From a virus (taxonomy: Duplodnaviria; Caudoviricetes): DNA of 64,000 nucleotides. Location of the stretch: IMG/VR virus record IMGVR_UViG_3300033463_000012; one strand, written 5' to 3'. Shown piece after piece: positions 11,121 to 52,470 of this stretch. The translations under genes and the position numbers were made by a program. The notes under the pieces are model-generated. The model did not search any database, was not told the origin of the DNA, and was given only the letters and a program-made list of their open reading frames with translations. The stretch's first letter is position 1. Every line of letters starts with the position of its first letter.

Positions 11121-11225
11121 TCCCTGACTGCATAGGATGACTTCTGAGCCACTTTCGGGTGAGGTAAGTAAAAGATACTAGACATAGGTAAAACTGGCTC
11201 AGAACGCACCAGAAACAGTGAGGGA
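11121..11225 (+). repeat. Dispersed ~105-bp dyad-symmetric element, copy 1
   Basis: TCCCTGACTG..TTCTGAGCCA-core GGTAAGTAAAAGATACTAG-TGGCTCAGAA..CAGTGAGGGA. Confidence 0.75.
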
Positions 11226-11240
11226 GAAGGTAGGTAAGAT

Positions 11241-12107
11241 ATGGCAACTTGTGGATGTTCAGGCGTAGGTTCAGGGGATTGGATATTCACTGAAATTTGT
11301 TCAATCCAAGAATTAGCTGCCTATTGCAAAAGAAAATTGGGTGCGGGCGTTTTATGCGTCCAGCTCACTGATCAGCACCTTCTGGACTGCTGCTGTCAGG
11401 CAATCCGAATGGCCTACCGCTATCTCTACGGCGAAGCGACCAAGCGCGACTACCTCATCATGAAACTTCTGCATGGACAGACTCATTATCGGGCTGCACA
11501 CAAGGACAAGGATGGGAACGAGGTCGAAGGCAACGTCTATACCCTGATTTGGAATGACATCGAAAAGAAATTGGAAGAACAACCAATCGACCCGGAAGAA
11601 TGGTGCAAATATACCTATGCCTGGGACTTTTCGATCATGAACCTGTTCGGCGGGATCAACACCCTTCACTCGGCCGAAAACCTGCTGTTGTCTGACTGGG
11701 CAAGGAATCTGACGAAGAATGGCGGTGGCCTGGTTTCCTATGATGCTGCAATGACTTGGCTGAAGCAGGTGGACAATCAGTTTGGCGCACATTTCCAGGC
11801 GTCAATGCATGAACCTTCTCATACTTTGACCGTTCTGCCTATGCCGAAATATGACACTTGGGCGCTGTTGCAGATATGGAAGAAAGCGGAAGTGCACGAA
11901 ATTTTGAACAACCCCTTGGTCATGGACTTGGCCCAGGGATATTGCTTCATGCAACTAGGTGTGATTTTGAACAAGTATACAGTGACTCTTGCCGGTGGCG
12001 GGTCATTGAACGGGTCGGATTTCTACAGCCAGGGCAAGGAACTGGTGGATTCGACCATGGAACGGTTGAGGGGAGAAGCCGATCCTCCGCTGTTCTTCAT
12101 AGGCTAA
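11241..12107 (+). CDS. gp13: Neck protein (gp13-like)
   Basis: ELAAYCKRKLGAGVLCVQLTDQHLLDC; LNKYTVTLAGGGSLNGSDFYSQG..PPLFFIG. Confidence 0.92.
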   Translation: MATCGCSGVGSGDWIFTEICSIQELAAYCKRKLGAGVLCVQLTDQHLLDCCCQAIRMAYRYLYGEATKRDYLIMKLLHGQTHYRAAHKDKDGNEVEGNVYTLIWNDIEKKLEEQPIDPEEWCKYTYAWDFSIMNLFGGINTLHSAENLLLSDWARNLTKNGGGLVSYDAAMTWLKQVDNQFGAHFQASMHEPSHTLTVLPMPKYDTWALLQIWKKAEVHEILNNPLVMDLAQGYCFMQLGVILNKYTVTLAGGGSLNGSDFYSQGKELVDSTMERLRGEADPPLFFIG

Positions 12108-12110
12108 ATT
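12104..12110 (+). promoter_or_regulatory. Putative late promoter CTAAATT (cargo-like cluster 12138-15264)
   Basis: Exact motif overlapping the gp13 stop. Confidence 0.7.
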
Positions 12111-12137
12111 GAACAAACAACCAAAAGGAAATTTCAA

Positions 12138-12395
12138 ATGATCAGACGCAGAAGACTTTACGAAGAAGACGACTATGTTAGAGGTAAAGAGTGGACCCAT
12201 GCTAATTTGAACTATAAAAGCGGTTATCATGATGCGCTGAAATTCGTTGTCAATGTCGCTGAAGATTACGATGATATTGATGGATTTCGTGTATGGATAA
12301 ATCATGCTATTACAAAAGCTAAAAAAGAACTGAGTGAAGCGGGTGAATCATGGGCAAAGATCAGAGGCCTTAACCAAGAGAAAACAGGAGTATAG
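12138..12395 (+). CDS. Hypothetical protein, candidate internal head protein (MIRRRRLYE leader)
   Basis: SD AAGGA; late promoter; basic leader ending L-x-E. Confidence 0.75.
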   Translation: MIRRRRLYEEDDYVRGKEWTHANLNYKSGYHDALKFVVNVAEDYDDIDGFRVWINHAITKAKKELSEAGESWAKIRGLNQEKTGV

Positions 12396-12396
12396 A

Positions 12397-13386
12397 ATGA
12401 TCAGACACAGAAGAATGATGGAATCTAGAATAAGCGATAAGGCACAAGAAATAATAAATGCCAAGAAGAAACGTCAGGATAGGCGTTCCTCCAAAATGTC
12501 ATACGAAGAGACTCAAGAGGCCGAAAACAAACGTCGCATTGAGCGGATATTCATGATAAAGGTCAAGAAGCTGTACGGTCTTCTTCCTGAGATATTGAAA
12601 GATGTGGAAACTGTTTATCAGGTAACAGGAAAGGCCATAGATGAGGAAGCTGGTGACGAGACTTTTCCTGATATGTTTTTCGGTATCTCAGACAATGAGC
12701 CTTATGTTGAGGTTGAAGCCGACTTGGTAGCTAGGGTTTCCGGGGAAACAGGAAGAAAGCATTTGATTTTGCAAAGTAAATATGACGGTTATTCTCTAAA
12801 TATCGATATAAACGGTGGCAGAGTAATTTACTCTTATATTCTTAAATTCGCCAGGAGCCTAGAGGATGTTGATGAAAGCGAGAGCGACAAGGACGCCATA
12901 GAACATCTTTTCAAACAAATCTCTCGGTGTATTGAAATTGTAGAAGATGATGCTGATGAAGTGAGCAAGAAGCTGGAAGGAATCCTTGACGAATACGACC
13001 GTAAGGAAATTCGTGGAATGAAGGAATCCTACAGACGTCGTGGTCACATGCTTCGTGAAGGACTTCTCAGTCAAGCCAAAGAAGAAGCCGAAAAGAGAAA
13101 GAGCAATGGAAAAATCATTCAGGAAAGGGCAAAGGAATTCCTGAAAGTTTTGAAAGAACTCTATCTGCACGCCGGTTATCATTTTGATTGGGATGAAGCC
13201 GAATGGACATCAGACAATGATCTCAAAATTCCATACGACATCAATGACGAAAAGACCGAAAAATTGGTCAATGAACTTTGCAGATATGGATGGATTTCCA
13301 AATGGAACAAATACAAGATTTGGGTCAAAGCAAAAGAATTTGCGGATGATGACCGTTTTGAAACCCTAATGGGTTGGTTGTCCTAA
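12397..13386 (+). CDS. Hypothetical two-module protein with leader MIRHRRMME and internal linker MKESYRRRGHMLRE
   Basis: Start at 12397 after SD AGGAG; linker at 13018-13059. Confidence 0.8.
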   Translation: MIRHRRMMESRISDKAQEIINAKKKRQDRRSSKMSYEETQEAENKRRIERIFMIKVKKLYGLLPEILKDVETVYQVTGKAIDEEAGDETFPDMFFGISDNEPYVEVEADLVARVSGETGRKHLILQSKYDGYSLNIDINGGRVIYSYILKFARSLEDVDESESDKDAIEHLFKQISRCIEIVEDDADEVSKKLEGILDEYDRKEIRGMKESYRRRGHMLREGLLSQAKEEAEKRKSNGKIIQERAKEFLKVLKELYLHAGYHFDWDEAEWTSDNDLKIPYDINDEKTEKLVNELCRYGWISKWNKYKIWVKAKEFADDDRFETLMGWLS

Positions 13387-13411
13387 TGAAGGTTATTGAT
13401 CAAAAGGAGTT

Positions 13412-14620
13412 ATGAACATGGATTCATTTTGGAGCACAGAAGCATATTTATATCGCGAAGAAGATGATTTCTATTGCTTCAATTGTCTGGGTGATGAAGC
13501 GTCACTTGACATATTCATCGACAAGGAAACATTGGATTCCAGTTATGCCTTGATCATTGGTGATGAATATGCTATCGGGGACAAAGACAATCATGTTTCC
13601 GAAGACGTGATTCTGACCAAAGGAAATGAATTACTGGAAAGCGTGATCGGGGAATATGCAACACTGACCAAAGATCAACTCATGGAGATGACATACAATG
13701 CATCAACCCAGGTCACTTCGGAATACAATGACCTAGGAACCGATACCAGAACAGGGCTTCCTTGGGGTCAAACCGAAGACATGAATGAATCCACTGAACC
13801 GGAAAAACTCGACGAAAGACTGGAAATAGATGACAATTTCAGAGTCATGTGGGGTGGACATTTGACCAACATCGCTGACACTCTGTATGCAATCTACAAG
13901 GGTGGAGACAACTTCAACAGACAAGAATTTCAAGACGGAATGGTAAGAAGCAGAAGTCTGAACAATGCCATGATGTATTTGAACATCTTTTCTGCTCTGC
14001 AACGCAAAGGTTGGCTGACAAAGGAACGTCAGGGTCGTCATTTCAAGTATCATCTTACACCCGAAGGAATGAAACAGGTTGATCGTGTTCTCGCCGCTTT
14101 GGGTGAAAAGAGAAATGACATCAAAACAGCAAAGCCAGAAACAAAGCCGGAAAGCAAACCCGAAACAAAACCAGTGTCCAACAAGATTTCCGTGATGCCT
14201 TTTGAACAGTGTTTCTTCGCCTCAATGGTTTTGGATGCCGAAGATTACAGTGGACCACGTGAATGCTCCTGGATCAGTCCCAGTAATTTGCGTGAAGTGC
14301 TTGAAACATATACAGATGAAGATGACAATCCTTTGAATGTAAATGAACTCAAGCGGCTATATGAAGAATATAAGGCAAAAATCCTCAATGGTGAATCCAA
14401 AAGCAATGCAAAACTTCATAAGGTTGGTTATGACTATGGGGAAATTTCCAGCAGATGCATTCCAGACATCACCGAATATGGAAAATCTTGGCCCGAATAT
14501 GACAGACGGCAGGCACGTGTTCAGCTAGAAACCACACTTTGGATGCTTGTTACAACTTCCAGAGACGATTGGAAATTCAATGACAATGAATGGGATAGTT
14601 GCCCTGTCAAGAAAAAGTAA
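13412..14620 (+). CDS. Hypothetical multi-module protein with a winged-helix-like segment
   Basis: LQRKGWLTKERQGRHFKYHLTPEG; junction MNESTEPEKLDE; KPETKP spacer. Confidence 0.8.
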   Translation: MNMDSFWSTEAYLYREEDDFYCFNCLGDEASLDIFIDKETLDSSYALIIGDEYAIGDKDNHVSEDVILTKGNELLESVIGEYATLTKDQLMEMTYNASTQVTSEYNDLGTDTRTGLPWGQTEDMNESTEPEKLDERLEIDDNFRVMWGGHLTNIADTLYAIYKGGDNFNRQEFQDGMVRSRSLNNAMMYLNIFSALQRKGWLTKERQGRHFKYHLTPEGMKQVDRVLAALGEKRNDIKTAKPETKPESKPETKPVSNKISVMPFEQCFFASMVLDAEDYSGPRECSWISPSNLREVLETYTDEDDNPLNVNELKRLYEEYKAKILNGESKSNAKLHKVGYDYGEISSRCIPDITEYGKSWPEYDRRQARVQLETTLWMLVTTSRDDWKFNDNEWDSCPVKKK

Positions 14621-14628
14621 GGAGAATA

Positions 14629-15264
14629 ATGAACATGAAGGAAAGTGTATTTGACAAAGGCATGCCAGAACACGATTATGTTTGGACAATCTTTGACTAT
14701 GATACTGGTGATTCAGAATACGAAGCGGACACCAGTTTCGAAACAGTTGAAGAAGCCAAAGCCGATGGTTTGGATTTCCTGAAAGGACTGACTGATGGAC
14801 ACTATGTGCTCAAGGTCTGGAATTTCTATGAAGATGAAGGCCCATTGGAAGATGGTGGTGTCCTTTGGATTGAAAGTGACCATGGCGAAATAAAAGATGA
14901 CATGGACGAATCTGTCGAAAGCCACGGTCAGATGCTTAATGAAGATGAATATCTCAGCAATCCTTTCAAGGTCGGGGACATTCTTGCAGGTTCATACAAC
15001 TACCGTGTCATAATTCCTCACTTCACCCAGGTCATTGCAGTCACACCGAAATCAGTGAAGTGCAGAGATTTGGTCGGTCAGGGAATGTCCGGCATGTTCG
15101 GTAACACCGCATACGCCGAAAAGGACGTATTCGACACCAGAGAACCGATTTGGACCGCTCGTGTCAAATACTACCGTGATGGTGATAGTCCACATGTCTA
15201 TCATGGACAGGTCTCGTACAGTCTATGGGACGGCAAGCCCATGCAATACGATTATATGGATTAG
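14629..15264 (+). CDS. Hypothetical two-module protein with linker MDESVESHGQMLNE
   Basis: Start 14629 after SD GGAG; linker 14902-14943, then FKVGDIL..VTPKSV phage-type module. Confidence 0.8.
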   Translation: MNMKESVFDKGMPEHDYVWTIFDYDTGDSEYEADTSFETVEEAKADGLDFLKGLTDGHYVLKVWNFYEDEGPLEDGGVLWIESDHGEIKDDMDESVESHGQMLNEDEYLSNPFKVGDILAGSYNYRVIIPHFTQVIAVTPKSVKCRDLVGQGMSGMFGNTAYAEKDVFDTREPIWTARVKYYRDGDSPHVYHGQVSYSLWDGKPMQYDYMD

Positions 15265-15287
15265 CTGACAAAGAATGAACATAAGAA

Positions 15288-15314
15288 GAGGCCCCACGAA
15301 AATGGGGCCTATTT
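15288..15314. terminator. Terminator between convergent genes
   Basis: AGGCCCCA-CGAAAA-TGGGGCCT followed by ATTTT. Confidence 0.8.
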
Positions 15315-15339
15315 TAATCAATAAATCAGAAGCATGTTT

Positions 15340-16026
15340 TTAATGATATTTGTCTTCCTTCAACATTTTTCCACGATAACGACGAGATTCCTTCATGTTC
15401 CTATGCATTTTGGCGAGTTTCTGTTTCTGTTCAGTCGAAAGAAGTTTCCAATAATTGTTTGGATTGGTGTAGCTCTTGACAGTTTTGTACAATTTGTCGA
15501 CAAGGTTTTTGTATTCATTCAAAAGGTAAATAGTTGGAACAGTAACAGCTTCAATAGTCGGAGTATCAAAATACTCTTCACGACAATCTTCATAGCAACA
15601 AACCAAAAAGTTATACAATTTATCTGGACTGCTAATACAATTTGAGTATTCCAAAGAAGTATCACCACCGGTTCTTGACCAATAAATAGTCAGTGGATAG
15701 TGTACATTAGGGTCATATTCTACATACCACCACAGGTCTGATGGACCAATTACTATAAATCCTTCATGAGTTATTCTGCAAATTTTGTATTCTTTCTCTG
15801 GTTTACTCAATTCTTCAATTAAATCATATTCATCCTGAGGATCTTTTTCAAAATTATCAAGACCATTGCACTTTATTGTCTTTTTATGTTCATCATAAAG
15901 TTCTTCCCAAATTTTATGAATTTTCCTACATTTGTCTTCAATGTAATCTGTAATTTCAGAACATTCCCAAGCTGCATCATGCAACTTCCGTTCTTCCTCT
16001 TCAGTGAATTCATATTCATCACGCAT
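15340..16026 (-). CDS. Hypothetical AT-rich protein ending in linker MKESRRYRGKMLKE
   Basis: 228-aa ORF; reverse CTAAATT at 16053-16059. Confidence 0.8.
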   Translation of the reverse strand: MRDEYEFTEEEERKLHDAAWECSEITDYIEDKCRKIHKIWEELYDEHKKTIKCNGLDNFEKDPQDEYDLIEELSKPEKEYKICRITHEGFIVIGPSDLWWYVEYDPNVHYPLTIYWSRTGGDTSLEYSNCISSPDKLYNFLVCCYEDCREEYFDTPTIEAVTVPTIYLLNEYKNLVDKLYKTVKSYTNPNNYWKLLSTEQKQKLAKMHRNMKESRRYRGKMLKEDKYH

Positions 16027-16052
16027 ATTCGAATCCTTTTGGTTGTTTATTC

Positions 16053-16074
16053 AATTTAGTCCCGTCTCTAAATT
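16053..16074. promoter_or_regulatory. Divergent late promoters (AATTTAG 16053-16059, CTAAATT 16068-16074)
   Basis: Exact motif on both strands. Confidence 0.7.
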
Positions 16075-16095
16075 GGTCAAGAGAGGTGCAATGTC

Positions 16096-17055
16096 ATGAA
16101 AAGATCTGGTTGGCCATATTTCTACAGCTCCAGCATACGCAGATTGTTGGTTGCCTTTATGACCACTTTCTCTGACATCAAGGTTCGTAGATATGATGAC
16201 TCTGGTCTGAAGACACCAGAGCATTACAAGGAAATCCTGGTTCCTATCAAGTTCGGTCCTATGTCAAAGTATTTCCAGAGACGGACTGAAGACGCATCAG
16301 GGCAAAGGTATTACATTCAGCTCCCTGCAATGGCCGTCACATTCTCGTCGTTCTCCTTTGACAATGCACGTTCCACTGCCTCAAGACAAAGACGATTCCT
16401 TCTTGACCCTGACAAATACACCGTTCCTGCTGAATTCCTGACCGACATGATGCCTTCCCCCTGGGACATCAACTTCACTTTGGCCATAAAGACGGAATCA
16501 TTCCAGGACTTCTGCCAGATAATCGAGCAAATCGTTCCCTGGTTCAACCCGGCAATCCACATCAAGGTCAAGGAATTCGAGACTGTCAACTTGGAAAGGG
16601 ACATTGAAGTGATCTTGAACGGGATGAGCACTGACATCACGGAAGAAGTTGAGGAAGACGGCAAGCGATATGTTTCCGGAACCTTGGACTTTGTCGCCAA
16701 GGCCTGGATGTACAAGCCAATCTCAATGGCCGACAACATGATCAAGGTCATCCATACCCACTACGGTTTTGACCCCGAATTCAATCTCGACGGGGAGAAT
16801 TTCGTGACCAAGGGAATGAAGCTGGAAGAGGCAATGGACAAGAAGGAATATCCCATGAAACCTGCGAGAACACGTGGGGAAGTGGACAAGATGGATGTGG
16901 AAAATGCACCTGAAGACTTGCCGGACATGGGATACATCAATGACAAAACCACCGACGGAAGGCCGAATCACGTGCCTTACAATGTCGAAGTGAAGCCGGA
17001 TGAAGCGGAAATGGAATTCAATGCAGAGGATGCAGAAGGAGAAACGAATGGCTGA
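16096..17055 (+). CDS. gp15: Tail sheath stabilizer / tail terminator (gp15-like)
   Basis: SIRRLLVAF..FSDIKVRR, VPIKFGP, QLPAM, PSPWDINFTL..QIIEQIVPWFNP. Confidence 0.93.
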   Translation: MKRSGWPYFYSSSIRRLLVAFMTTFSDIKVRRYDDSGLKTPEHYKEILVPIKFGPMSKYFQRRTEDASGQRYYIQLPAMAVTFSSFSFDNARSTASRQRRFLLDPDKYTVPAEFLTDMMPSPWDINFTLAIKTESFQDFCQIIEQIVPWFNPAIHIKVKEFETVNLERDIEVILNGMSTDITEEVEEDGKRYVSGTLDFVAKAWMYKPISMADNMIKVIHTHYGFDPEFNLDGENFVTKGMKLEEAMDKKEYPMKPARTRGEVDKMDVENAPEDLPDMGYINDKTTDGRPNHVPYNVEVKPDEAEMEFNAEDAEGETNG

Positions 17056-21028: not shown

Positions 21029-21808
21029 ATGAGAAAGAAATATGAACTAACAGATGAAACAATGGAATGGAAAGGACATACCTTGCATCGGATTCGTGCT
21101 CTCAAGAATTTCAAATACACCGAAGAAGGTAATCTTGGTGGTTGGGTTGAATCAGAAGACAACTTGAGTCAAGAAGGCAATTGTTGGATATATAGCCATG
21201 CCAAGGTATATGACAATGCGGTAGTAATGGACAATGCTGATGTATCTGGTGATGCTCAAGTATATGGTAATGCAGTCATAAAAAAAGAAGCGAAAGTAAG
21301 TTATAATGCCAAGGTATATGGTAATGCCACGATTGAAGGAGATTCCTTAGTATTTGGAAATGCAACCATTTGCGACAATGCCAAATTACTGTGGCATGCT
21401 GAAGTGACAGATCATGCCATTATAGCCGATAATGCCAAGGTATCTGGTAATGCCAAGGTATATGACGATGCTGTAGTAAATGGATATGCCGAGATACACG
21501 ACAGTGCCGAAGTATATGGTAATGCTCATGTATCTGAAAAAGCATGGGTATATGGTGAAGCAAGAGTATATGATGATGCTCATATATACGGAAGTGCTCA
21601 GGTTTATGGAATTTCCAAAGTATATGAAGAAGCACAGGTATATGAAAATGCAAAGGTGTCAGGTGATATTTGGATCAATGGCAAAGCCGATGTTCACGGT
21701 GATGTTATTCTTGGGCCTGCTGTTGGTCAGTTAGATATTTGTGGAACTGCAAATATTGAATCGAATGATGATGTCAATATTCCCAGAGGTAGAAAAACAA
21801 TTCATTAG
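21029..21808 (+). CDS. Hexapeptide-repeat (left-handed beta-helix) phage protein
   Basis: KYELTDE..LHRIRAL..LGGWVESEDNLSQEGNCWI followed by about 25 AKVYGN-type repeats. Confidence 0.9.
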   Translation: MRKKYELTDETMEWKGHTLHRIRALKNFKYTEEGNLGGWVESEDNLSQEGNCWIYSHAKVYDNAVVMDNADVSGDAQVYGNAVIKKEAKVSYNAKVYGNATIEGDSLVFGNATICDNAKLLWHAEVTDHAIIADNAKVSGNAKVYDDAVVNGYAEIHDSAEVYGNAHVSEKAWVYGEARVYDDAHIYGSAQVYGISKVYEEAQVYENAKVSGDIWINGKADVHGDVILGPAVGQLDICGTANIESNDDVNIPRGRKTIH

Positions 21809-22794: not shown

Positions 22795-22828
22795 AAACCC
22801 TGCCCCTCAAAAGGCAGGGTTTTCTTTT
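22795..22828 (+). terminator. Rho-independent terminator
   Basis: AAACCCTGCC-CCTCAAAA-GGCAGGGTTT followed by T tract. Confidence 0.85.
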
Positions 22829-22884: not shown

Positions 22885-23760
22885 ATGACTCTATTTCTTG
22901 ACTGGTCAAACTACATGTATCGGTGCCTGTTCGTCTCCCGAAATCAGGATCCTTTTGACGATGAGTTCAAACTTTGGCGCCATATCATTTTCCGCTGCCT
23001 CATGGATGAAATCAAGTCATTCAATCCCGACGAGGTGGTGATCGCGGGGGACGGCAGAAATCCTTGGAGAAAGGCGATTTATGCAGATTACAAGGCCGGC
23101 CGAAACAAGGGAAGGGAGGAATCCCCAGTTGATTTCGACAAATTCTTTCAGGTTGCAGAAGAGTTCTGGCTTGAATTGAAGGAATCTTTCCCCAACATCA
23201 AGTGGCTCAAAAAGGAAAGAATCGAAGCCGACGACATCGTGGGGGTTCTGGTGAAGAATCTGCATAAAGATTGCATGGCCATTACCACGGACAAGGACTA
23301 CATTCAGCTCCTCAAATACCCGGGCTTCAGACTGTTCAACCCGATCAAACGGGAAGATGTGAAATCCTTGAATCCCAAAATGGATTTGGATGTCAAGTGC
23401 ATCTGCGGAGACGGGTCGGACAACATCTCCGGAATCAAGCGCGGAATCGGTCCTAAACGTGCGGAGAAGTTGCTGACCGAAGGAAAGCTGGACGAATTTC
23501 TGAACAAGGACGAAGAAGCGAAAAATTCCTATGTTCGCAATCGTCAGCTGATCGACATGGACAACATTCCTCAGGACATTCAGCTGGAAATCCTGAACGA
23601 ATACAAGTCCTATCCAGTTCAGCGGTTCGACACGGAAAGGTTCAAGAAGTTCATTATGAAGAACAGCCCAAGCATGATCCTTGAAACATCCTCCCTCGCA
23701 GCCAGTCTTTCCAAGGTCGGCAGTGTTCCGATATCCAATATAGACAGTTTCATCCAGTAG
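22885..23760 (+). CDS. rnh: RNase H / 5'-3' flap exonuclease (T4 rnh-like)
   Basis: LFLDWSN, WRKAIYADYKAGR, IEADDIVG, TTDKDYIQL, GDGSDNISGI..GIGPK. Confidence 0.95.
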   Translation: MTLFLDWSNYMYRCLFVSRNQDPFDDEFKLWRHIIFRCLMDEIKSFNPDEVVIAGDGRNPWRKAIYADYKAGRNKGREESPVDFDKFFQVAEEFWLELKESFPNIKWLKKERIEADDIVGVLVKNLHKDCMAITTDKDYIQLLKYPGFRLFNPIKREDVKSLNPKMDLDVKCICGDGSDNISGIKRGIGPKRAEKLLTEGKLDEFLNKDEEAKNSYVRNRQLIDMDNIPQDIQLEILNEYKSYPVQRFDTERFKKFIMKNSPSMILETSSLAASLSKVGSVPISNIDSFIQ

Positions 23761-23761
23761 G

Positions 23762-23869
23762 CTCCCTGGCTGTCTAGGAGCCACTCAGGGGCCATTTCTG
23801 ATGAGGTAGCTATAACTTACTAGCTCTCGAACAAATGAATCCTAGACCATCCTGGAAGCTGTAGGAGAG
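23762..23869 (+). repeat. Dispersed ~105-bp dyad-symmetric element, copy 2
   Basis: Core GGTAGCTATAACTTACTAG at 23805-23823 with periodic arms. Confidence 0.85.
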
Positions 23870-23875
23870 TTGTAG

Positions 23876-24187
23876 ATGATAGCAGAGCCATTTGAGCAAC
23901 AATTGTTTGTAAAAATCATTTCAAAGAAATTGGAAGAGTTCGGAATATCGCTTGTTAGTTGTCGCTATGAGTATGACTCGATTACTTCTACTCCTGTGAA
24001 GTTTAATAATTTCATATATTTTATAGATTTTAGTGATGAAGATGAATTAAAGGTAGTGCACATCACCTACCCCAATTTTCCAGTTCCTATGCAAATTTCG
24101 TCTTTTAAGGAAAAATCAATGAAAGAAATAATCGAAAAGGTGACTAGATTCTTTGTAGAACATAAAGACGATTCCAGGTTGATCTGA
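23876..24187 (+). CDS. Hypothetical protein (FxxxLFxxILxKKL family)
   Basis: 103-aa ORF; SD GGAG; FEQQLFVKIISKKLEEFG. Confidence 0.75.
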   Translation: MIAEPFEQQLFVKIISKKLEEFGISLVSCRYEYDSITSTPVKFNNFIYFIDFSDEDELKVVHITYPNFPVPMQISSFKEKSMKEIIEKVTRFFVEHKDDSRLI

Positions 24188-27945: not shown

Positions 27946-27977
27946 CGGGGGCTCCTAACTGAGCCCCCTTTTCTTTT
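27946..27977 (+). terminator. Terminator after gp32
   Basis: GGGGGCTC-CTAACT-GAGCCCCC followed by TTTTCTTTT. Confidence 0.88.
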
Positions 27978-28000
27978 GTCTCCATTATTCAAAAGAAAGG

Positions 28001-28107
28001 CTCCCTGACTGCACAGGAAAGTCAAGGAGCCACTTTCTGATGATGCTAGTATAAACTACTAGGCCTATGTACAAATGGCCTAGGACTCATCCTGGTCAGT
28101 GTCAGAG
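28001..28107 (+). repeat. Dispersed ~105-bp dyad-symmetric element, copy 3
   Basis: CTCCCTGACTG..GAGCCACTTTC-core GCTAGTATAAACTACTAG-AAATGGCCTAGGACTCATCCTGG; overlaps the 3' end of the convergent ORF. Confidence 0.8.
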
Positions 28108-28577
28108 AATTTCTCCCTGGACTTGCGAACATTCTCGTCCAGCTTGCGGATGCATTCCCAGTTGGCCATGGGGACGATGGTGTAATTTCCGAGACAGGGA
28201 AGACTTTTCTTTTTCGACTGAGGAAAAACCTCCTGTCCGATGAGGAAATTCTTGATGAGTCCTTCGACGGAAATGTCCAGAGAGGGATCAATTTCCTTGG
28301 CTTCGTTCAGGATTCGGTCGACCTTCGCTTCAATCCACGGGGTCAACTTGAAATACTTCCCGCGGCCCACCTGCTTGTAGACGAAAAAGCCACCGCTCAC
28401 CATGGCGGCGACCAATTCATTGCAGGAAATGTAGCCCTTGGACTTGAACATGATGGAATCCGCGTTCACCCCTTCCGGAAAGCAATAGGGGACGAAAAGC
28501 ATCTTCATGTAGGTGGAAAATCTCACCTTGCCGTTTTTCACGGTATATGGCGTCTTGAAAGTAGGAACATTGACCAT
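28080..28577 (-). CDS. Hypothetical early protein
   Basis: Start at 28577 (MVNVPTF) after SD CAGGAGG and an early promoter. Confidence 0.8.
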   Translation of the reverse strand: MVNVPTFKTPYTVKNGKVRFSTYMKMLFVPYCFPEGVNADSIMFKSKGYISCNELVAAMVSGGFFVYKQVGRGKYFKLTPWIEAKVDRILNEAKEIDPSLDISVEGLIKNFLIGQEVFPQSKKKSLPCLGNYTIVPMANWECIRKLDENVRKSREKFSDTDQDES

Positions 28578-28607: not shown

Positions 28608-28643
28608 TATAATATAATAACTTTTCGGCCAAATGGTATACAA
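28608..28643 (-). promoter_or_regulatory. Early promoter
   Basis: TTGTAT..GGCCGAAAAGTTATTATATTATA. Confidence 0.75.
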
Positions 28644-28666
28644 AATTTGAAGAAAATTCACCTGGA

Positions 28667-28673
28667 CTAAATT
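28667..28673 (+). promoter_or_regulatory. Putative late promoter CTAAATT (fibre 1)
   Basis: Exact intergenic motif. Confidence 0.7.
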
Positions 28674-43538: not shown

Positions 43539-43721
43539 ATGGAATATGGCCTGATGCGAACACTGGGCATGAGCTACAGTGAAATCGAGCAATGTCCTTT
43601 TGACGAGATTCAGGCCTTCCTTGAACTTCATCGCAGAGAAGTCGAGAACAGACAGAAGGCAAGAGAGGAAGCCAAGTCCGGCAGAAAGATGGTGGACCTC
43701 AAGTCGGCTATGGGTCTCTAG
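43539..43721 (+). CDS. gp51-like hub assembly protein, possibly the frameshifted extension of gp26
   Basis: GMSYSEIEQCPFDE pattern; no SD; frame open from the T6 run at 43499. Confidence 0.65.
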   Translation: MEYGLMRTLGMSYSEIEQCPFDEIQAFLELHRREVENRQKAREEAKSGRKMVDLKSAMGL

Positions 43722-43726
43722 GACTG

Positions 43727-43831
43727 TTCCTCAGCTCCAGGGAACCACTCAGGGACATTTTCTCCAAGGGTAGCTATAACTTATTAGCTCTTGATTGAAT
43801 GGACAGGAATGGCTCCTAATCAGCCAGGAGC
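43727..43831 (+). repeat. Dispersed ~105-bp dyad-symmetric element, copy 4
   Basis: Core GGTAGCTATAACTTATTAG 43769-43787; fills the gap between convergent genes. Confidence 0.85.
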
Positions 43832-43833
43832 AT

Positions 43834-44616
43834 TTACCAATCTATCCCGAAATCGTCATTGTTCCGCGGTGGATATACCTGCGGGGTCTGTTGTTCCCCG
43901 TTCTTCAGTTTCCGCAGGTCATAGTTCTGTGCCAAGGCATCGGAACCACCTTCAAGATATTGCTTCATTGGCTGAAGTTTTTCGGGTGATTCCTCGACTA
44001 TGGCATTTTCATGGTCAGTGGTTTCCTTGACTTCCTCTCCAATGTCATCATAGCTCCTCAACATTGGATTTTCCCAAACACGGGCGATCATTATCCAGGA
44101 GTGTTGAGTGTTCAGAAATTGCGAGTCAGTGTCCTTCACGTCGACCACTTCGTAGAATATGCCGGAATAGTGAGGTCTGAACACGTCCCCGTATTTCGGC
44201 TGATATCCTTCGAGATCAGCTTTCTTTGCATAGGAATCCCAGGCCAGCTTCCCGATGTAGACTTGAAAATTGTCAAGACCTTCAATGCCGAACTTGGTGT
44301 ATTGTCTGTTGTCCGAGGGAAGTTCAAAATACAACTTGACCCTGAACACCTTCCTGACTCGCCTGTCATTGTCCTCGCCGAAGATGCGTTCATTGTAGAG
44401 CGAGTAGTCGATTTGATACCAGTCGCAGACTTCTCCCGCCATGTCCAAGGATTCCGACGTAAGTTGGTCGGTCAACTTCTTTTCCGAGTCATAGCAGGAA
44501 TTGTTGGTGTTGAACCACCCATTGACGAAATTGTAGCAACCGTTCAAAGCGAACACCCTCTGCGAGTCATCCGCTTCGAAGTTCATTTCCGGTGTTTCCA
44601 ATACCTGAATTTCCAT
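43834..44616 (-). CDS. gp14: Neck protein (gp14-like)
   Basis: IFGED, TKFGIE..D, PKYGD....IFYEV..V; reverse CTAAATT at 44622-44628. Confidence 0.88.
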   Translation of the reverse strand: MEIQVLETPEMNFEADDSQRVFALNGCYNFVNGWFNTNNSCYDSEKKLTDQLTSESLDMAGEVCDWYQIDYSLYNERIFGEDNDRRVRKVFRVKLYFELPSDNRQYTKFGIEGLDNFQVYIGKLAWDSYAKKADLEGYQPKYGDVFRPHYSGIFYEVVDVKDTDSQFLNTQHSWIMIARVWENPMLRSYDDIGEEVKETTDHENAIVEESPEKLQPMKQYLEGGSDALAQNYDLRKLKNGEQQTPQVYPPRNNDDFGIDW

Positions 44617-44633: not shown

Positions 44634-44666
44634 GAAAAAGGAGAGGATTTCGGTCCTCTCCTTTTC
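44634..44666. terminator. Terminator (can act in both directions)
   Basis: AAAAAGGAGAGGA-TTTCGG-TCCTCTCCTTTT. Confidence 0.85.
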
Positions 44667-45278: not shown

Positions 45279-45315
45279 GAACTACCTCTGTACAACTTTG
45301 CGAAATTTAGAGTTC

Positions 45316-45857: not shown

Positions 45858-45866
45858 GTGATTCTC

Positions 45867-46253: not shown

Positions 46254-46312
46254 GTGGTTTTCTCCTTTACTGCAAATATAGAAAATTCCAGCTAGGTCGG
46301 AGTGACTATTTC

Positions 46313-47158: not shown

Positions 47159-47159
47159 G

Positions 47160-47423: not shown

Positions 47424-47431
47424 GTTCTACC

Positions 47432-47644
47432 TCAATATCCACAAACTCGTCCAGCCCAGAAGTCATATTGAATCGAGGAAGGACACCAGCCGTTGAAGTT
47501 GAACGTCCTGTATCCATGGCCATAGAAATAATAGACACCTTCATAGTGCCCGCCATAAACCTGGCAGTGCTTCAGGGATCCATATTCGCAGAAACCGAAC
47601 GAGGTTGCGGTCAAAAGCGCCACCAGGCAGATGAGTTTCTTCAT
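47432..47644 (-). CDS. Small secreted Cys/Tyr-rich protein
   Basis: MKKLICLVALLTATSFG signal-peptide pattern; 4 Cys in the mature part. Confidence 0.7.
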   Translation of the reverse strand: MKKLICLVALLTATSFGFCEYGSLKHCQVYGGHYEGVYYFYGHGYRTFNFNGWCPSSIQYDFWAGRVCGY

Positions 47645-47817
47645 TTCAAGTTCTCCTTCAGGAATTTCTTGTAATAATAGTCACTGGTCGCCTTTTCCAT
47701 GTAGGATGCGTAAATCTTTTCGGAGATGTCCAATACGATCCCCGACAACCATTCAAACTTCAGGTGACGAAGTTTGATCGAAAGGTTGAGAAGAGCGCAA
47801 GCGATGTTGACTCTCAT
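47641..47817 (-). CDS. 58-aa hypothetical protein (not in the ORF track)
   Basis: MRVNIACALL..KKFLKENLK*; fills the gap with an ATGA overlap. Confidence 0.55.
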   Translation of the reverse strand: MRVNIACALLNLSIKLRHLKFEWLSGIVLDISEKIYASYMEKATSDYYYKKFLKENLK

Positions 47818-47824
47818 TTACAAC

Positions 47825-48049
47825 CTACTTGAAAAGTTCCAGCTGTTCAAGTCCGCAGCAGGTCTCTGGTTCCGGCTTGAGAATCTGGTCAATCATGGGT
47901 TCGAGTTCCTTCTTCCCCTTGACCAGTTCTCCGACCGTCTTGTCCATGATGCAGCACGACTTGAATCTGCAGTTCTCGCACTTCTTGTCGCACTTCTTGG
48001 TGACTTCCCAAATGGCGTCACAAACCTTTGCCATCCACTTGTCCATCAC
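47825..48049 (-). CDS. Small Cys-rich protein
   Basis: KCDKKCENCRFKSCC. Confidence 0.65.
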   Translation of the reverse strand: MMDKWMAKVCDAIWEVTKKCDKKCENCRFKSCCIMDKTVGELVKGKKELEPMIDQILKPEPETCCGLEQLELFK

Positions 48050-48174
48050 TTGGCTTCCTTGACCTTCTTGTCCAGTTCAGTGAGAAGGACTTCGGCTCGT
48101 TCCGCCGGATTCTTCCCGATCATGAAGAGGTTGAAGACTTCATTGAATTCCTTGTCGATTTCGTTCATTTCCAT
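48046..48174 (-). CDS. 42-aa hypothetical protein (not in the ORF track)
   Basis: Strong SD AAGGAGG; MEMNEIDKEF.. Confidence 0.6.
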   Translation of the reverse strand: MEMNEIDKEFNEVFNLFMIGKNPAERAEVLLTELDKKVKEAK

Positions 48175-48205
48175 GTTGGACCTCCTTGGTTGTGGTTCTG
48201 GTTCC

Positions 48206-48289
48206 TACCGAGAGAGGGAATTGAACCCTCACGTCCTTGCGGACAGCGGATTTTGAGTCCACCGCGTCTACCTATTCCACCATCTCGGC
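48206..48289 (-). tRNA. tRNA-Leu(CAA)
   Basis: Cloverleaf with acceptor GCCGAGA/TCTCGGT, D-loop GG, anticodon loop CT-CAA-AA, long variable arm GTCC-GCAA-GGAC, GGTTCAATTCC; no encoded CCA. Confidence 0.95.
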
Positions 48290-48298
48290 TTGTCTGGT

Positions 48299-48332
48299 TA
48301 TAATATAATAAATTTGTCCTGAAAGTGGTCAA
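48299..48332 (-). promoter_or_regulatory. Early promoter for tRNA-Leu and downstream ORFs
   Basis: TTGACC-N16-TATTATATTATA. Confidence 0.75.
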
Positions 48333-48354
48333 ACTTTTTGCAATTATTTGTCAC

Positions 48355-48460
48355 TTCACTGCACTGATTCCTAGGTATGCAGAGGCCATTTGTTCGAGAG
48401 CTGGTAGATTATAGCTACCCTTGCAGAAAATGGCTCAGAACTCATCCCTGTAGCTGAGGA
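48355..48460 (-). repeat. Dispersed ~105-bp dyad-symmetric element, copy 5
   Basis: Reverse-strand core GGTAGCTATAATCTACCAG (48401-48419). Confidence 0.85.
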
Positions 48461-48853
48461 TCAGTTCCAGCTGAACCCCTGATCCTCTCCATCCTGGTCA
48501 TCGTCCTCGGAAACATAATAGTCCCATTCCTCGAACAGTGACTCGATTGTGTCAGGTTCGAAGTGGACATAGTTGGAAAGATCGCCGGCATAGACGCACT
48601 TGCAGTTCCCGACATTGTCCACCCGCTTCCAAATCTTTATGAGGTAGTTGTTCGCGTGACAAATTCCTACAAGTCCCACGAGCTGATCCCACGTGGTTTT
48701 AATCCAAGCGTTCAGTTCGGAGATTTTGAAGAAACCGCCGGACATCGAGTATTTCTGCGGTATCTCGGAGATTTCACCTGTCTGAAGTTTGATCACTTCC
48801 TGTGGTGTCAGCTTTTCCACTATCACGGCATCGAATAAGGTAGGTGAGGACAT
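48461..48853 (-). CDS. Hypothetical protein
   Basis: Start MSSPTLF at 48853 after AAGGA; upstream CTAAATG variant. Confidence 0.7.
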   Translation of the reverse strand: MSSPTLFDAVIVEKLTPQEVIKLQTGEISEIPQKYSMSGGFFKISELNAWIKTTWDQLVGLVGICHANNYLIKIWKRVDNVGNCKCVYAGDLSNYVHFEPDTIESLFEEWDYYVSEDDDQDGEDQGFSWN

Positions 48854-48893
48854 AAGTTTTCCTTGTTGAATTTGAATATTCCATTTAGCCCTC

Positions 48894-48921
48894 AAAAAGA
48901 AAGGGAGCCCGAAGGCTCCCT
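48894..48921 (-). terminator. Rho-independent terminator
   Basis: GGGAGCC-TTCG-GGCTCCC then TTTCTTTTT on the minus strand; hairpin identical to those at 3835 and 3958. Confidence 0.9.
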
Positions 48922-48941
48922 GTTCCTCGTTCCGGTTTCCT

Positions 48942-49283
48942 CTAGAAGGAGGGGTCCCGATAGTAGCAGGCGTGGCCGAGGGACCAACGTTCGTATTTCG
49001 AGTCCAGCCGGCGACGGGGGTAGGCCGAGTTCCCACGCCAGCGACCATAGCGGAAGACCACGTGGTTGGTGCGGTTGTTCGGGTTGGAAGTGTATTCGTA
49101 TTCCTGGTCTTCACTGAGGATTTCGCCCCTGACCAGCTTGGCGTCCAGCTCCCGAACGATCACGTGGCGGGGATTGATCACCTTAATGACTTCGTAGGCG
49201 TAGCAATCCGACCCGACCCCCATGCTCGCTCCCATTCCGACTTCGGGCTTGACCTTGGGTTCCTTGAGGATGTTTCTTTTCAT
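48942..49283 (-). CDS. Conserved phage-type hypothetical early protein
   Basis: PEVGMGAS..GSDCYAYEVI..YYRDPSF; own early promoter and leader. Confidence 0.85.
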   Translation of the reverse strand: MKRNILKEPKVKPEVGMGASMGVGSDCYAYEVIKVINPRHVIVRELDAKLVRGEILSEDQEYEYTSNPNNRTNHVVFRYGRWRGNSAYPRRRLDSKYERWSLGHACYYRDPSF

Positions 49284-49321
49284 GGCTGCCTCCTGGATAG
49301 TGGTTCTTGTCTCTACCCTAA

Positions 49322-49354
49322 TAATATAATATCTTTTTGGAGGAAGCGTATCAA
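49322..49354 (-). promoter_or_regulatory. Early promoter
   Basis: TTGATA-N17-TATTATATTA. Confidence 0.8.
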
Positions 49355-49385
49355 CTTTTTTGCAATTTTTTCAGAACGAATTCCT

Positions 49386-49907
49386 CTATCTGGTCAATGG
49401 TCTCGGAATCATAGTTTTTCCATCTATTGCACAACTTGTTTTCTTGTCCGATTCGTCTTTCAGCCAGAAAAAGATTTCATTGGGATTGAAAGCCAAGAGT
49501 GATTTCCTGGCCAAATCCAAAAGGTCATTCTTTCCGAAGACAATGCCGAGACAATATTTGTTCAAATCCTTGTAGATGTAGTTTTTGACTCCGTGACTGT
49601 TGAATTTTCCATTGAGGATTTTTACAAAAAGATGCACCTGAAACATCTTCTTGTCCAACTTTTGTTTTTTCTCATCTATGAATTTGATTATTTCATTTGT
49701 GTCATTCAGACCGATGAATACTTTTCTGTCGCAGAATTTCAGGTTCACTTCCCAATTGTAGGTGTTTGGCAGATGACTGACACGCAAGTTGAGGTCTGCA
49801 CTCTGAAGGATGACTTCACCAAAGTTATTTTGTCTTGTCGGAAGAAGAGGAGCGCTGTATGCATTCCTCACCTCCTCAATGAACATTGGATTCAATGTGT
49901 ATTCCAT
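49386..49907 (-). CDS. Hypothetical protein (FxxxLFxxIL family)
   Basis: FQVHLFVKILNGKFNSHG in mid-protein. Confidence 0.75.
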   Translation of the reverse strand: MEYTLNPMFIEEVRNAYSAPLLPTRQNNFGEVILQSADLNLRVSHLPNTYNWEVNLKFCDRKVFIGLNDTNEIIKFIDEKKQKLDKKMFQVHLFVKILNGKFNSHGVKNYIYKDLNKYCLGIVFGKNDLLDLARKSLLAFNPNEIFFWLKDESDKKTSCAIDGKTMIPRPLTR

Positions 49908-49910
49908 AGT

Positions 49911-50726
49911 TCACTTCATCACGAACAGGATTTCCACCTTGTTCTCGTCCGCGGTGTAATAGATGTCACCGGTCGGGATGAAGTTCCATTCGGCCTGGGT
50001 GTATTTGTCCACGGGGCGAGCATAGACCGCGGCGATTTTCTCGGAGAAGTTCCTGTCGTCGAACGGATTGCCCTTGGTCGGTGGCACGTTGTTCAGTTCT
50101 TCGATTCGCCCGTGGAAGATCGGGAATTTGTCCATGTTGGGCGCATTGGGATCGACCTTCTGCATCATGACGATTCCGTTGAATTTGTAGAAGGTGTAGT
50201 CGTATTCCTCACCGTCGTCCCGGAACCATTCTTCATGGGCTCGCTTCAGAGCGGACTTCGTGGTGTCGATGTAATACTGGTCAATGCGAATACCAGTGCG
50301 CTTGTAGATCATCGTGGACAGGCGCTTCCAGAGACCATCGTGGTTCCCATGTCCGTGGGAATTCGACTTCTTCGACCGAACGTCCACCCCGTGCTTGATG
50401 TCCTGCATGTGGCAGAGGCAGTGGAGCATTTCGTGGCAGACACAGTTCTTCAACATCCGGTCCATGATGTCCTTGGAAACCAGGATGCAGGAGCGTTCCA
50501 CGTGCATGATGTTTTCGGGGTCCATGCAGTAGCCACCCATGGCGCCCTCGATCCCGACGATTTCTTCAGCCCAGGCGATCGGGATGTTCGGAATCTTCCC
50601 GCCATAGACCTCTGCATTGATCTCGTCGAAGAGGGCCTTCAGCTTCTTGTCGCTTTCCTTCGGGACCAGCTTTTCGAAGTCGGGGCTGGGCTTGATCTCG
50701 TCTTTGGTTTCCTGAGTTTCTGCCAT
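49911..50726 (-). CDS. SprT-like zinc metalloprotease
   Basis: LFDEINAEVYGGKIP, CHEMLH, H...HDGLWK. Confidence 0.85.
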   Translation of the reverse strand: MAETQETKDEIKPSPDFEKLVPKESDKKLKALFDEINAEVYGGKIPNIPIAWAEEIVGIEGAMGGYCMDPENIMHVERSCILVSKDIMDRMLKNCVCHEMLHCLCHMQDIKHGVDVRSKKSNSHGHGNHDGLWKRLSTMIYKRTGIRIDQYYIDTTKSALKRAHEEWFRDDGEEYDYTFYKFNGIVMMQKVDPNAPNMDKFPIFHGRIEELNNVPPTKGNPFDDRNFSEKIAAVYARPVDKYTQAEWNFIPTGDIYYTADENKVEILFVMK

Positions 50727-50751
50727 ATCTGCCTCCTGGGTGGTGTCTAGG

Positions 50752-50786
50752 TATAATATAATATCTTTTTGGCCCCAGCGTATCGA
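50752..50786 (-). promoter_or_regulatory. Early promoter
   Basis: TCGATA-N17-TATTATATTATA. Confidence 0.75.
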
Positions 50787-51509
50787 CTATTTCTCATTTT
50801 TTTCATTTTCTTCCGCAGGATTCTTCCCGAGGTAGGCATACTCGTAGGCCTTGAATGACCTGGAAATGAAGTCCTTGACACTGAAGCCGTCACCCCATTT
50901 GTTCGTGAAAGTCATCCGCCTATGAGTTTTTCCGATTCCGAGATCAATGATGAAGTCCTTCCCGTAGTTGACTCTATGCCAACCGATTTTCACAGGGATG
51001 TCATTCAGATTGCCGCGAACGGTGATTTCGTCTCCGTTCTCGTGTCGCTTTATATTGGTCAAACTGTTGGCGGTTTCATTAACAATCCCGTTCATGATAT
51101 TCTTCACAAGTTTCCGTCGGCAATCTTCCTTTGCGATTTTGGAAAGATATGCTCTGAATCCTTCGAACCAGTCGAAGGCTCGCTGAACGAAGGGTTCCAC
51201 CTTTTCACCTTTGTTCGGAAAGTTCAAGACCCTCCACCAATCATCCATCTTTTCCACAGGTTCACATTTGACTTTGGTCTGATAAGCGACGAAGTCATTG
51301 TTGTGCGGATTCCAGTCGTCGTCCCTGTAGATGACACTGAAAAGTTCTCCATCATTCACGGCGAATCCGAAGATGAATTTCTTAGGTTCACACCAATATC
51401 CACTCAGTCCTGCCTTGCCGGAAACTTCAGTGACATCGATCCTTCCTCTGATGCGATTGAATGGAATGTTCCTCTTGGTCAGTTCTTTCTGAATTGCATT
51501 GAGGTCCAT
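50787..51509 (-). CDS. Hypothetical early protein, paralog A
   Basis: Start MDLNAIQ at 51509; clearly similar along its length to 52287-51571. Confidence 0.85.
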   Translation of the reverse strand: MDLNAIQKELTKRNIPFNRIRGRIDVTEVSGKAGLSGYWCEPKKFIFGFAVNDGELFSVIYRDDDWNPHNNDFVAYQTKVKCEPVEKMDDWWRVLNFPNKGEKVEPFVQRAFDWFEGFRAYLSKIAKEDCRRKLVKNIMNGIVNETANSLTNIKRHENGDEITVRGNLNDIPVKIGWHRVNYGKDFIIDLGIGKTHRRMTFTNKWGDGFSVKDFISRSFKAYEYAYLGKNPAEENEKNEK

Positions 51510-51539
51510 AGTTCCTCCTGGTTCTGGTGGTCTGATCAA

Positions 51540-51570
51540 AATATAATATCTTTTCGGTCAAAGTGTACAA
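51540..51570 (-). promoter_or_regulatory. Early promoter
   Basis: TTGTAC-N16-TATTATATT. Confidence 0.75.
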
Positions 51571-52287
51571 CTATTTTTCCATTTTTTCGGTATTGTCATT
51601 TTCATTATTGGAGAATTCATAGAATTTGATGGATTTGGAAATGAAGTCCTTGACGTTGAATTTGGTTTTCCACGTGTTCGAGAATATCATCCTGCTATGA
51701 GTTTTGCCTATTACAAGAGTGATGATGAAATCCTTTCCACCATTGATCGAATGCCAACCGAGTTTCACGGGAATATTGTTCAACTCCCCGGAAACGTCCA
51801 AATGATTTATGTCATTTTCCTTCCTTACCTTTTTCATGTCCTTGGAAAATTCTTCGATGGTTCCGTTCAGGATGTTCCTCACCAGCTTGCGCCGACATTC
51901 TTCCTTGGACACTTTCAGAAGATGATTGCGAAATCCTTCAAACCATTCCATTGAACGTTGGACAAACTTTTCGACGCTTTCCTTTTCCTTAGGATTGTTC
52001 ACCACCCTCCATAAATCTCCCAACTTCGTCACAGGTTCGCAGACATCAGTTGAATGAAGGAAGAAATCGTTTCCTTTCTTGAGAATGTTTTTTTGATAGA
52101 TGACACTGAAGATGTTCCCGTTGTTCACTGCAAAGGCAAATGTGTATGTCCTCGGCGTGTTGTATTCGGCCCAGTAGTGATTCAAGCTAGGCTTTCCAGA
52201 AACAGTAGCTACATCGATCCTTCCCCTGATGTGTTCGAAAGTGATGTTTTTCCTTTTCAGTTCCTTTTTAATGTCATCTAGGTTCAT
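51571..52287 (-). CDS. Hypothetical early protein, paralog B (tandem duplicate)
   Basis: IRGRIDV..VSGK, CEPV, WFEGFR, CRRKLV, IPVK.GWH shared with paralog A. Confidence 0.85.
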   Translation of the reverse strand: MNLDDIKKELKRKNITFEHIRGRIDVATVSGKPSLNHYWAEYNTPRTYTFAFAVNNGNIFSVIYQKNILKKGNDFFLHSTDVCEPVTKLGDLWRVVNNPKEKESVEKFVQRSMEWFEGFRNHLLKVSKEECRRKLVRNILNGTIEEFSKDMKKVRKENDINHLDVSGELNNIPVKLGWHSINGGKDFIITLVIGKTHSRMIFSNTWKTKFNVKDFISKSIKFYEFSNNENDNTEKMEK

Positions 52288-52310
52288 GATGTCTCCTATA
52301 TGGTTTAATC

Positions 52311-52341
52311 AATATAATATCTTTTCGTCCGAGGTATACAA
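52311..52341 (-). promoter_or_regulatory. Early promoter
   Basis: TTGTAT-N16-TATTATATT. Confidence 0.75.
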
Positions 52342-52363
52342 AGAAAATGATAAATATGCAGAT

Positions 52364-52470
52364 GCTCTGTCAGCTCCAGGGATGAGTTCCTAGACAGTTT
52401 TGCAGCTGGCTAGTAGTTTATAGCTACCTCACATGAAACTGGCTCTGAGTGGCTCCCTGGAGATGTGGGA
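52364..52470 (-). repeat. Dispersed ~105-bp dyad-symmetric element, copy 6
   Basis: Reverse-strand core GGTAGCTATAAACTACTAG (52410-52428). Confidence 0.85.

Follow-up and report, generated by a model that had tools for sequence, protein, structure and literature searches.

The DNA analysed here is a window of 64,000 nucleotides from a tailed virus (IMG/VR record IMGVR_UViG_3300033463_000012). It belongs to a circular contig of 182,555 bp that was assembled from a bovine gut metagenome. The phage is a distant T4-like myovirus. Its gp23-type major capsid protein is 33% identical to cyanophage gp23, and it carries T4-type portal, prohead protease, gp32, RNase H, baseplate and neck proteins. Between its genes lies a dispersed family of ~113-bp elements, each composed of an asymmetric ~35-bp core (GGTAGCTATAAnnTACTAG) with one arm on each side. 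A sequence-only reading of the window had listed six copies. With boundaries taken from nhmmer, using a profile built on the six window segments, all six were recovered within about 5 nt of their reported positions, at 82–94 bits each (E 1e-24 to 1e-28), and no seventh copy was found on either strand of the window. The only other matches of the profile in the window were the reverse strands of these same copies (11–19 bits), which are matched because the elements are dyad-symmetric. The profile scan for copy number proposed in that reading also covered flanking sequence of the same genome and located three further copies, giving nine in the ~107 kb (~60%) of the phage genome that were read.

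The copies are intergenic throughout and occupy 5′ untranslated regions (UTRs), 3′ UTRs, terminator–promoter spacers, and convergent and divergent junctions. Copy c1 (11117–11230, plus strand) is placed between a late-promoter motif, GTAAATTA at 11101, and the start codon at 11241, for which its right end provides the ribosome-binding site GAGGGAG. Copy c2 (23759–23871, plus) occupies the gap from the stop codon of an RNase H (rnh-like) gene at 23760 to an ATG at 23876 and likewise provides the ribosome-binding site, AGGAG, from its right end. Copy c3 (27998–28112, plus) lies 3′ of a gp32-like gene and its intrinsic terminator (27947–27978), between convergent genes, and its right arm overlaps by 33 nt the 3′ end of the convergent minus-strand gene (ATG 28577, stop 28080). 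Copy c4 (43723–43835, plus) exactly spans the gap between two convergent stop codons, those of a 60-aa open reading frame (ORF) ending at 43721 and of a neck-protein gene on the minus strand (43834–44616). The earlier description, in which two copies sit between convergent genes and one is overlaid on coding sequence, is borne out by c3 and c4.

On the minus strand, c5 (48353–48465) begins at the stop codon (48461) of a 131-aa gene, and beyond it come an early promoter (48332 to 48305) and a tRNA-Leu(CAA) gene (48289–48206). Copy c6 (52361–52474, minus) lies between the intrinsic terminator of a MoxR-like ATPase gene (52519 to 52494) and an early promoter (52341 to 52311). The three remaining copies are outside the window. 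Copy c0 (L036:5767–5874, plus) sits between a late promoter and a start codon and gives the Shine-Dalgarno sequence from its right end, so that c0, c1 and c2 share a stop-to-next-start placement in which each furnishes this signal. Copy cA (L098:7425–7540, plus) is in a divergent gap; a late promoter on the minus strand, which reads antisense to the element, is the only one found to transcribe across it. Copy c7 (L100:15390–15504, minus; 77616–77730 in window numbering) is upstream of the late promoter of the next gene. Independent Logan assemblies from two runs of the source sample both break contigs inside c6 (window 52445–52464). Contigs are joined at c6 only via cross-matching of the repeat, and none of the DNA contigs omits an element. 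Repeats of this family thus fragment assemblies of this phage.

The six window copies align over ~113 nt with a mean column identity of 64% and 24 invariant columns. Their layout comprises a left arm of ~45 nt, a core of ~18–20 nt with conserved flanks, and a right arm of ~50 nt. Conservation peaks from GAGCCAyTTTC through GGTAGCTATAAcTTACTAG to AAAnTGG and falls off toward both ends, and the core is the best-kept part of the element among paralogs and orthologs alike. The core pattern GGTAGCTATAANNTACTAG, allowing at most three mismatches, was matched five times against 0.02 expected; in the sixth copy (28001) the core is shorter by one base (GCTAGTATAAACTACTAG). These matches bear out the core proposed earlier, and the flanks GAGCCAyTTT and AAAnTGG are as it had described them. 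The core carries stop codons in two of the three sense frames, and stops in the flanks shut the third frame in c2, c4 and c6. The repeat family is real and non-coding. Two candidate functions were rejected on inspection. As a promoter, the core resembles neither the late motif CTAAATT(G/A) nor the early unit TTGACC-N16-TATTATATTATA of this phage, and as an intrinsic terminator the element has a hairpin lacking a following T-run.

The left arms and the reverse complements of the right arms align as one sequence family, and the element is therefore best described as an old palindrome around an asymmetric centre. When a structure voted from the individual folds was applied to a 14-copy alignment, 70.8% of cells paired, as against 35–44% with the partner slid, so the dyad symmetry is real. 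Inverted matches among the copies were also recovered by a separate repeat search. The inner arm usually contains two RGGAGCCA-like units placed 9–11 nt apart, with two to three phased units per arm, and in one copy AGGAG occurs three times at a spacing of exactly 10 nt. The outer arm is of type O1 (like GGCTCCCTGaCTG) or type O2 (like ACTGTCCCaCAGCT), and all four left/right combinations are present. Arms of different copies diverge by as much as 50%; the c1 left arm is 80–83% identical to the c0 right arm when the latter is reverse-complemented. Base identity at lag 10 was 0.32 in the pooled arms compared with 0.245 after shuffling (z 4.8; z 3.5 per arm set), with lag 5 depleted. This signal is attributable to the two to three phased RGGAGCCA-like units, and its effective sample is small because the copies are homologous rather than independent.

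The closest relative came from a graded series of relatives assembled from ENA and Logan data, of which ~165 kb were read. It is 88% identical in the portal protein, 87% in the MoxR protein and 80% in gp32. Five sites are filled in this relative as well, namely those of cA, c1 (L137:6209–6322, with the canonical core), c3 (L135:10927–11039), c5 (L130:18838–18947) and c6 (L130:11161–11274). Two sites are empty. At the c0 site (L039) the relative has 9 nt from stop to start with both flanking genes conserved, and the c2 site (L135), where the copy is missing at 87% identity, holds 3 nt from the rnh stop codon to the next ATG, beside a replaced segment of ~850 bp. The relative also has an extra 463-aa gene (L137:6404–7866, corresponding to about 11312 in the window) directly downstream of the c1 ortholog. 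This gene is inserted between a small ORF and a gp13-like gene, an indel that adjoins the element.

Relatives at 52–77% identity (L040–L042, L133, L134 and L136; ~85 kb) contained no copies, including at the sites beside portal, MoxR and gp32. As judged from these genomes, the family dates back to the ancestor that this phage shared with the relative of 80–88% protein identity. An origin from the host or from another virus was also considered and rejected: exact-pattern scans of IMG/VR, JGI metagenomes and 185,579 prokaryote species genomes (GTDB) returned only chance matches to the core and arm words, as checked by nhmmer. Because these scans gave chance matches only, the family is taken as confined to this phage lineage.

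Within this lineage, orthologous copies are 44–69% identical (mean 0.546) and thus no more alike than non-orthologous pairs between the two genomes (0.559). The five copies of the relative average 0.642 identity among themselves, and the nearest neighbour of each is a paralog; the same holds arm by arm. Copies c1 and cA share the variant 19-nt core GGTAAGTAAAAGATACTAG, whereas the orthologs of both retain the canonical core, and c1 has a left arm of type O1 where its ortholog has one of type O2. Since orthologs are no more alike than non-orthologs and copies within a genome are closer, repeated gene conversion must have followed the split of the two phages, and the 80–83% identity of the c1 left arm to the inverted c0 right arm indicates that exchange spans inverted arms. 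The comparison thus shows copies that evolve in concert by ongoing gene conversion within a genome.

Alternatively, the elements could be cis-acting DNA sites for a beneficial dimeric or multimeric protein, involved in genome organisation or acting as a topoisomerase site, or as a polar barrier or loading site linked to transcription or replication direction. The protein would contact the phased units along a single helical face, with polarity given by the asymmetric core. Such a site accords with symmetric arms that are each kept as sequence rather than as pairing partner, with the raised lag-10 identity and its two to three RGGAGCCA-like units about 10 bp apart, and with a core that is best conserved in paralogs and orthologs. 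The single orientation switch along the genome (six plus copies up to 43.8 kb, three minus copies after) and the retention of five of the seven comparable sites in the relative are also consistent with it. However, the orientation pattern is confounded with gene direction, and an arm difference of up to 50% is large for one binding protein. Moreover, two sites are empty in the relative, all are missing at ≤77% portal identity despite the same core genes, and no candidate binding protein was identified. On balance we give a protein site of this kind a modest chance of being correct.

A gyrase or T4 topoisomerase II site is a special case of this explanation, and strong gyrase/topoisomerase sites had been the favoured interpretation of the sequence-only reading. 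We found no positive support for it. The periodicity that the arms had been said to have is present as the weak lag-10 identity (0.32 versus ~0.245, among homologous copies), but AT/GC periodicity at 10–11 bp is absent, both from each arm and from the element taken as a whole (p 0.23–0.95). The gyrase cleavage consensus is neither enriched nor positioned at the core: its best matches reached 9–11 of 13 positions, equal to those in shuffled sequence and at varying locations, although this test is a weak one. In E. coli, gyrase targets the BIME-2 repeats, so that being a palindromic repeat does not preclude being a topoisomerase site. The strong gyrase site of phage Mu (Mu SGS), pSC101 par and BIME-2 resemble the phage element in being sites of ~100–140 bp with a centre and flanking arms. 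The Mu SGS is, however, a single essential site, whereas the phage elements are multiple and individually dispensable, and the phage element differs from strong gyrase sites in lacking both AT/GC helical periodicity and consensus enrichment. The chance that these are gyrase or topoisomerase II sites is in our view very slim.

The pairing of the arms also raises the possibility of an RNA function, in which the element would be co-transcribed with the neighbouring genes and fold into an extended imperfect hairpin, serving as a substrate of RNase III or shielding mRNA ends in the manner of the T7 RNase III sites or of Correia and ERIC transcripts, with gating of translation at the copies that hold ribosome-binding sites. 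Most single copies do fold as one imperfect hairpin of ~34–41 bp at −27 to −45 kcal/mol. Orientation agrees with that of the adjacent genes in all six copies whose neighbours are co-directional, and the Shine-Dalgarno sequences supplied by c0, c1 and c2 would pair with a far-left CUCCCU. The z-scores of the folds are nevertheless weak (−0.5 to −4.2), and the pairing is not particular to the native arms. Left/right chimeras averaged −35.9 kcal/mol against −37.5 for natives (permutation p = 0.23), and the chimera of the c1 left arm and the c0 right arm reached −72.7. By region, natives exceeded chimeras as a weak trend in the inner hairpin (p = 0.066), with p = 0.15 for the apical part and p = 0.63 for the outer arms. 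The cross-copy complementarity pointed out earlier was reproduced, the left arm at 23759 and the right arm at 43723 folding together at −56.0 kcal/mol versus −37.5 and −36.1 for the natives.

Sense and antisense strands fold equally, with a mean difference in energy of 0.16 ± 1.4 kcal/mol, and G-U pairs favour neither strand. On 14 copies RNAalifold returned only a 5-bp apical stem with no covariation (consensus −0.41 kcal/mol). The covariation analysis that had been proposed earlier gave nothing significant: dealing the 3′ partners among sequences left 69.8 ± 1.1% of cells paired against 70.8% in the real alignment (90 of 500 shuffles as high), and the covariation score was 0.160 versus 0.152 shuffled (148 of 500 as high). 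No Rfam family matched at the gathering score or at E up to 10, and no RNA data set containing this phage was found. The gene context is also unfavourable for an RNA, as intrinsic terminators precede c3 and c6, the only promoter found for cA reads it antisense, and c4 belongs to no evident transcript. Support for a conserved RNA hairpin is thus lacking, because covariation is absent, chimeras fold equally well and both strands fold alike. The pairing potential is that of two arms of one palindromic family rather than the product of compensatory evolution. The sequence-only reading had considered pairing within a copy to be poorly conserved and had preferred a DNA-level element over an RNA hairpin; we agree on both counts, since native arms pair no better than chimeric or shuffled partners and there is no covariation, RNAalifold consensus or G-U strand asymmetry. 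We give the RNA explanation the same modest chance as the protein site. A hammerhead-like CUGAUGA...GAA motif present in two copies was unconserved and was dropped.

Recombination linkers that swap gene cassettes would offer a further explanation, modelled on the promoter/terminator cassettes called PeSLs that are documented in T4-like phages (PMC4122927). In line with this precedent, c2 is at the border of the ~850-bp segment replaced in the relative, c1 adjoins a 1.46-kb insertion there, and the copies clearly recombine together. By contrast, c0, c3 and c6 have no adjacent rearrangement, and promoters and terminators occur beside the elements and never inside them, whereas a PeSL (promoter-early stem-loop) cassette combines a terminator stem-loop with an early promoter. 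A separate repeated unit in this genome, the early promoter with its leader, matches the PeSL description better and is far closer to the PeSL cassettes of T4-type phages than the 110-bp element is. The elements therefore have a slim chance of being cassette linkers.

We favour, at a probability of about 0.5, the explanation that the element is a gene-less, lineage-specific palindromic DNA repeat of the REP/REPIN, ERIC and Correia kind, which spreads and homogenises by recombination. The element would act and be kept as DNA and not as folded RNA. A protein recognising both the core and the phased arm units, or simply the very active T4-type recombination machinery acting on the ~50-bp conserved centre, would drive breakage and repair from other copies. 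Such repair would homogenise the family and occasionally seed a new gap, and new copies would persist only where genes stay intact. Insertion into gaps would be tolerable because the core closes two to three frames and a ribosome-binding site can be substituted by the right end. Effects on expression, for example through hairpins in UTRs, would be incidental and would not explain why the element exists.

Several observations weigh against this explanation. The movement it supposes is read from a single relative, whose two empty sites may instead have arisen by precise loss, and the copy census is limited to the portion of the genome that was read. No target-site duplication was found in the flanks of the 14 copies, no transposase, RAYT or nuclease gene is next to any copy, and neither a full-length gene-containing form nor a solo arm occurs in ~270 kb. 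Conservation is lowest at the ends of the element, in contrast to the terminal repeats of a typical miniature inverted-repeat transposable element (MITE). In addition, all six copies with co-directional neighbours share the direction of those genes (two-sided p about 0.03), and orientation flips once along the genome, from plus (cA and c0–c4) to minus (c5–c7), near 44 kb, where convergent genes meet. In this bias, gene direction cannot be separated from genome position. An orientation bias is unneeded for a purely selfish element, and its presence here hints that orientation is selected and that the element has some function. The favoured explanation does not account for this bias or for the strong conservation of the asymmetric core. 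A more far-reaching possibility is that the elements are binding sites of a phage-encoded protein and that the roughly ten co-oriented copies, with their one flip where late genes give way to early genes, set polarity genome-wide, in replication, transcription or condensation. Another is that they are the gene-less arms of a new nuclease-driven mobile element. To these two possibilities together we assign a small chance. The putative protein may be a nuclease, a recombinase or a topoisomerase-like factor that reads the phased arm units and the polar core.

The comparison with mobile elements also determines how far a MITE-like nature, raised earlier as an alternative, can be maintained. Insertion polymorphism is observed, with c0 empty in L039, c2 empty in L135 and five sites filled in both phages. 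Together with the absence from distant relatives and the concerted evolution, these two clean empty sites agree with that alternative. The lack of target-site duplications argues against it, and for this reason we do not assign the family to the MITEs in the strict sense. The arms are inverted, but the ends decay, and we did not find conserved terminal inverted repeats matching an autonomous transposon. No RAYT gene was seen among the neighbours of the copies or between the arms in the ~107 kb of this genome. The relative has two tnpB (IS605 OrfB / Cas12f-like) genes of 410 aa each (L130:15527–16759 and L135:14748–15980), which this phage lacks at both sites; one of them is carried by an insertion of 3.2 kb, some 2 kb upstream from the ortholog of c5. 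A link between tnpB and the elements was considered and rejected, as the two genes are only ~70% alike and are away from the elements, and their flanks have no similarity to the arms or the element.

The family does have the properties of ERIC/Correia-type repeats, being dispersed, gene-less and intergenic imperfect palindromes in the ~100–150 bp range with a conserved centre, and its closest kind is Correia, ERIC and REPIN, although it falls outside the strict MITE or REP/RAYT definitions. Like the Correia elements of Neisseria (CREE/NEMIS), which are ~100–155 bp, dyad-symmetric, intergenic and gene-less, it has variants of the ends or arms in all left/right combinations (O1 and O2 here), can give expression signals to the next gene and varies in presence or absence among close relatives. 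A Correia element is bounded by sharp terminal repeats of 26 bp and a TA duplication, whereas the ends of the phage element are least conserved and no duplication is seen. Correia elements also occur in hundreds of copies on a bacterial chromosome, whereas the phage family has few (nine found), with none in the sampled host genomes. No lysogeny genes were noticed in the parts of this T4-like phage that were read.

With ERIC/IRU the family shares an imperfect palindrome of similar size (~127 bp in ERIC) with a conserved centre, a strictly intergenic position, an orientation given by the asymmetric centre and no known transposase. ERIC copies are reportedly well conserved, with constraint at the RNA level, whereas the phage orthologs are 44–69% identical without covariation. 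REP/REPIN repeats mobilised with RAYT are likewise gene-less intergenic palindromes with short arm units about 10 bp apart and a fixed polarity; the phage family differs in unit sequence and in having no RAYT or gene-carrying full form in ~60% of the genome and ~165 kb of relatives, where a crude motif scan likewise detected no ORF of the GxxExxY (PF13366) nuclease type. The RNase III sites of T7 are similar as a set of about ten dispersed, sequence-related intergenic hairpins co-oriented with transcription, but these are kept as structures in obligatory transcripts, whereas the phage element has no covariation and several of its copies are outside or antisense to the local transcript.

Two repeated promoter classes were identified elsewhere in the window. 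The motif CTAAATT(G/A) occurs 15–45 nt upstream of many structural-gene start codons, for example at 31, 1099, 4638, 12104, 16068, 20999, 28667, 33196, 34131 and 39612 on the plus strand and at 4621, 16059, 44628, 45310 and 63956 on the minus strand. This motif probably serves as the late promoter of the phage, replacing TATAAATA of T4. The early promoter and leader unit TTGACC-N16-TATTATATTATA, with conserved flanks, heads most minus-strand early gene cassettes (28608–28667, 48283–48343, 49320–49379, 50752–50811, 51537–51596, 52311–52341, 53695–53754, 55373–55432 and 58624–58683). Hairpins resembling bidirectional intrinsic terminators, with T-runs on both strands, are found at gene-block boundaries (44635–44666 and 22795–22822). 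An 18-nt periodic repeat of at least 15 units (21171–21687) lies inside the ORF at 21029–21808, which probably encodes a repeat protein of the hexapeptide or beta-helix type.

Dispersed palindromic repeats are common in bacteria and rare in phages. In a survey of viral sequences, MITEs were present in about 0.01%, and those of phages are generally read as borrowed from the host (PMC11602168). The family described here has no detectable copy in host genomes or the other sampled collections, and it sits among the gp32, rnh, portal, neck and baseplate genes of the phage. It accounts for several odd 110-bp gaps in the annotation of this phage and for breaks in its assemblies. It also shows how inserts are tolerated in tightly packed 5′ and 3′ UTRs, and it provides a compact natural system for the spread and homogenisation of short repeats under T4-type recombination.

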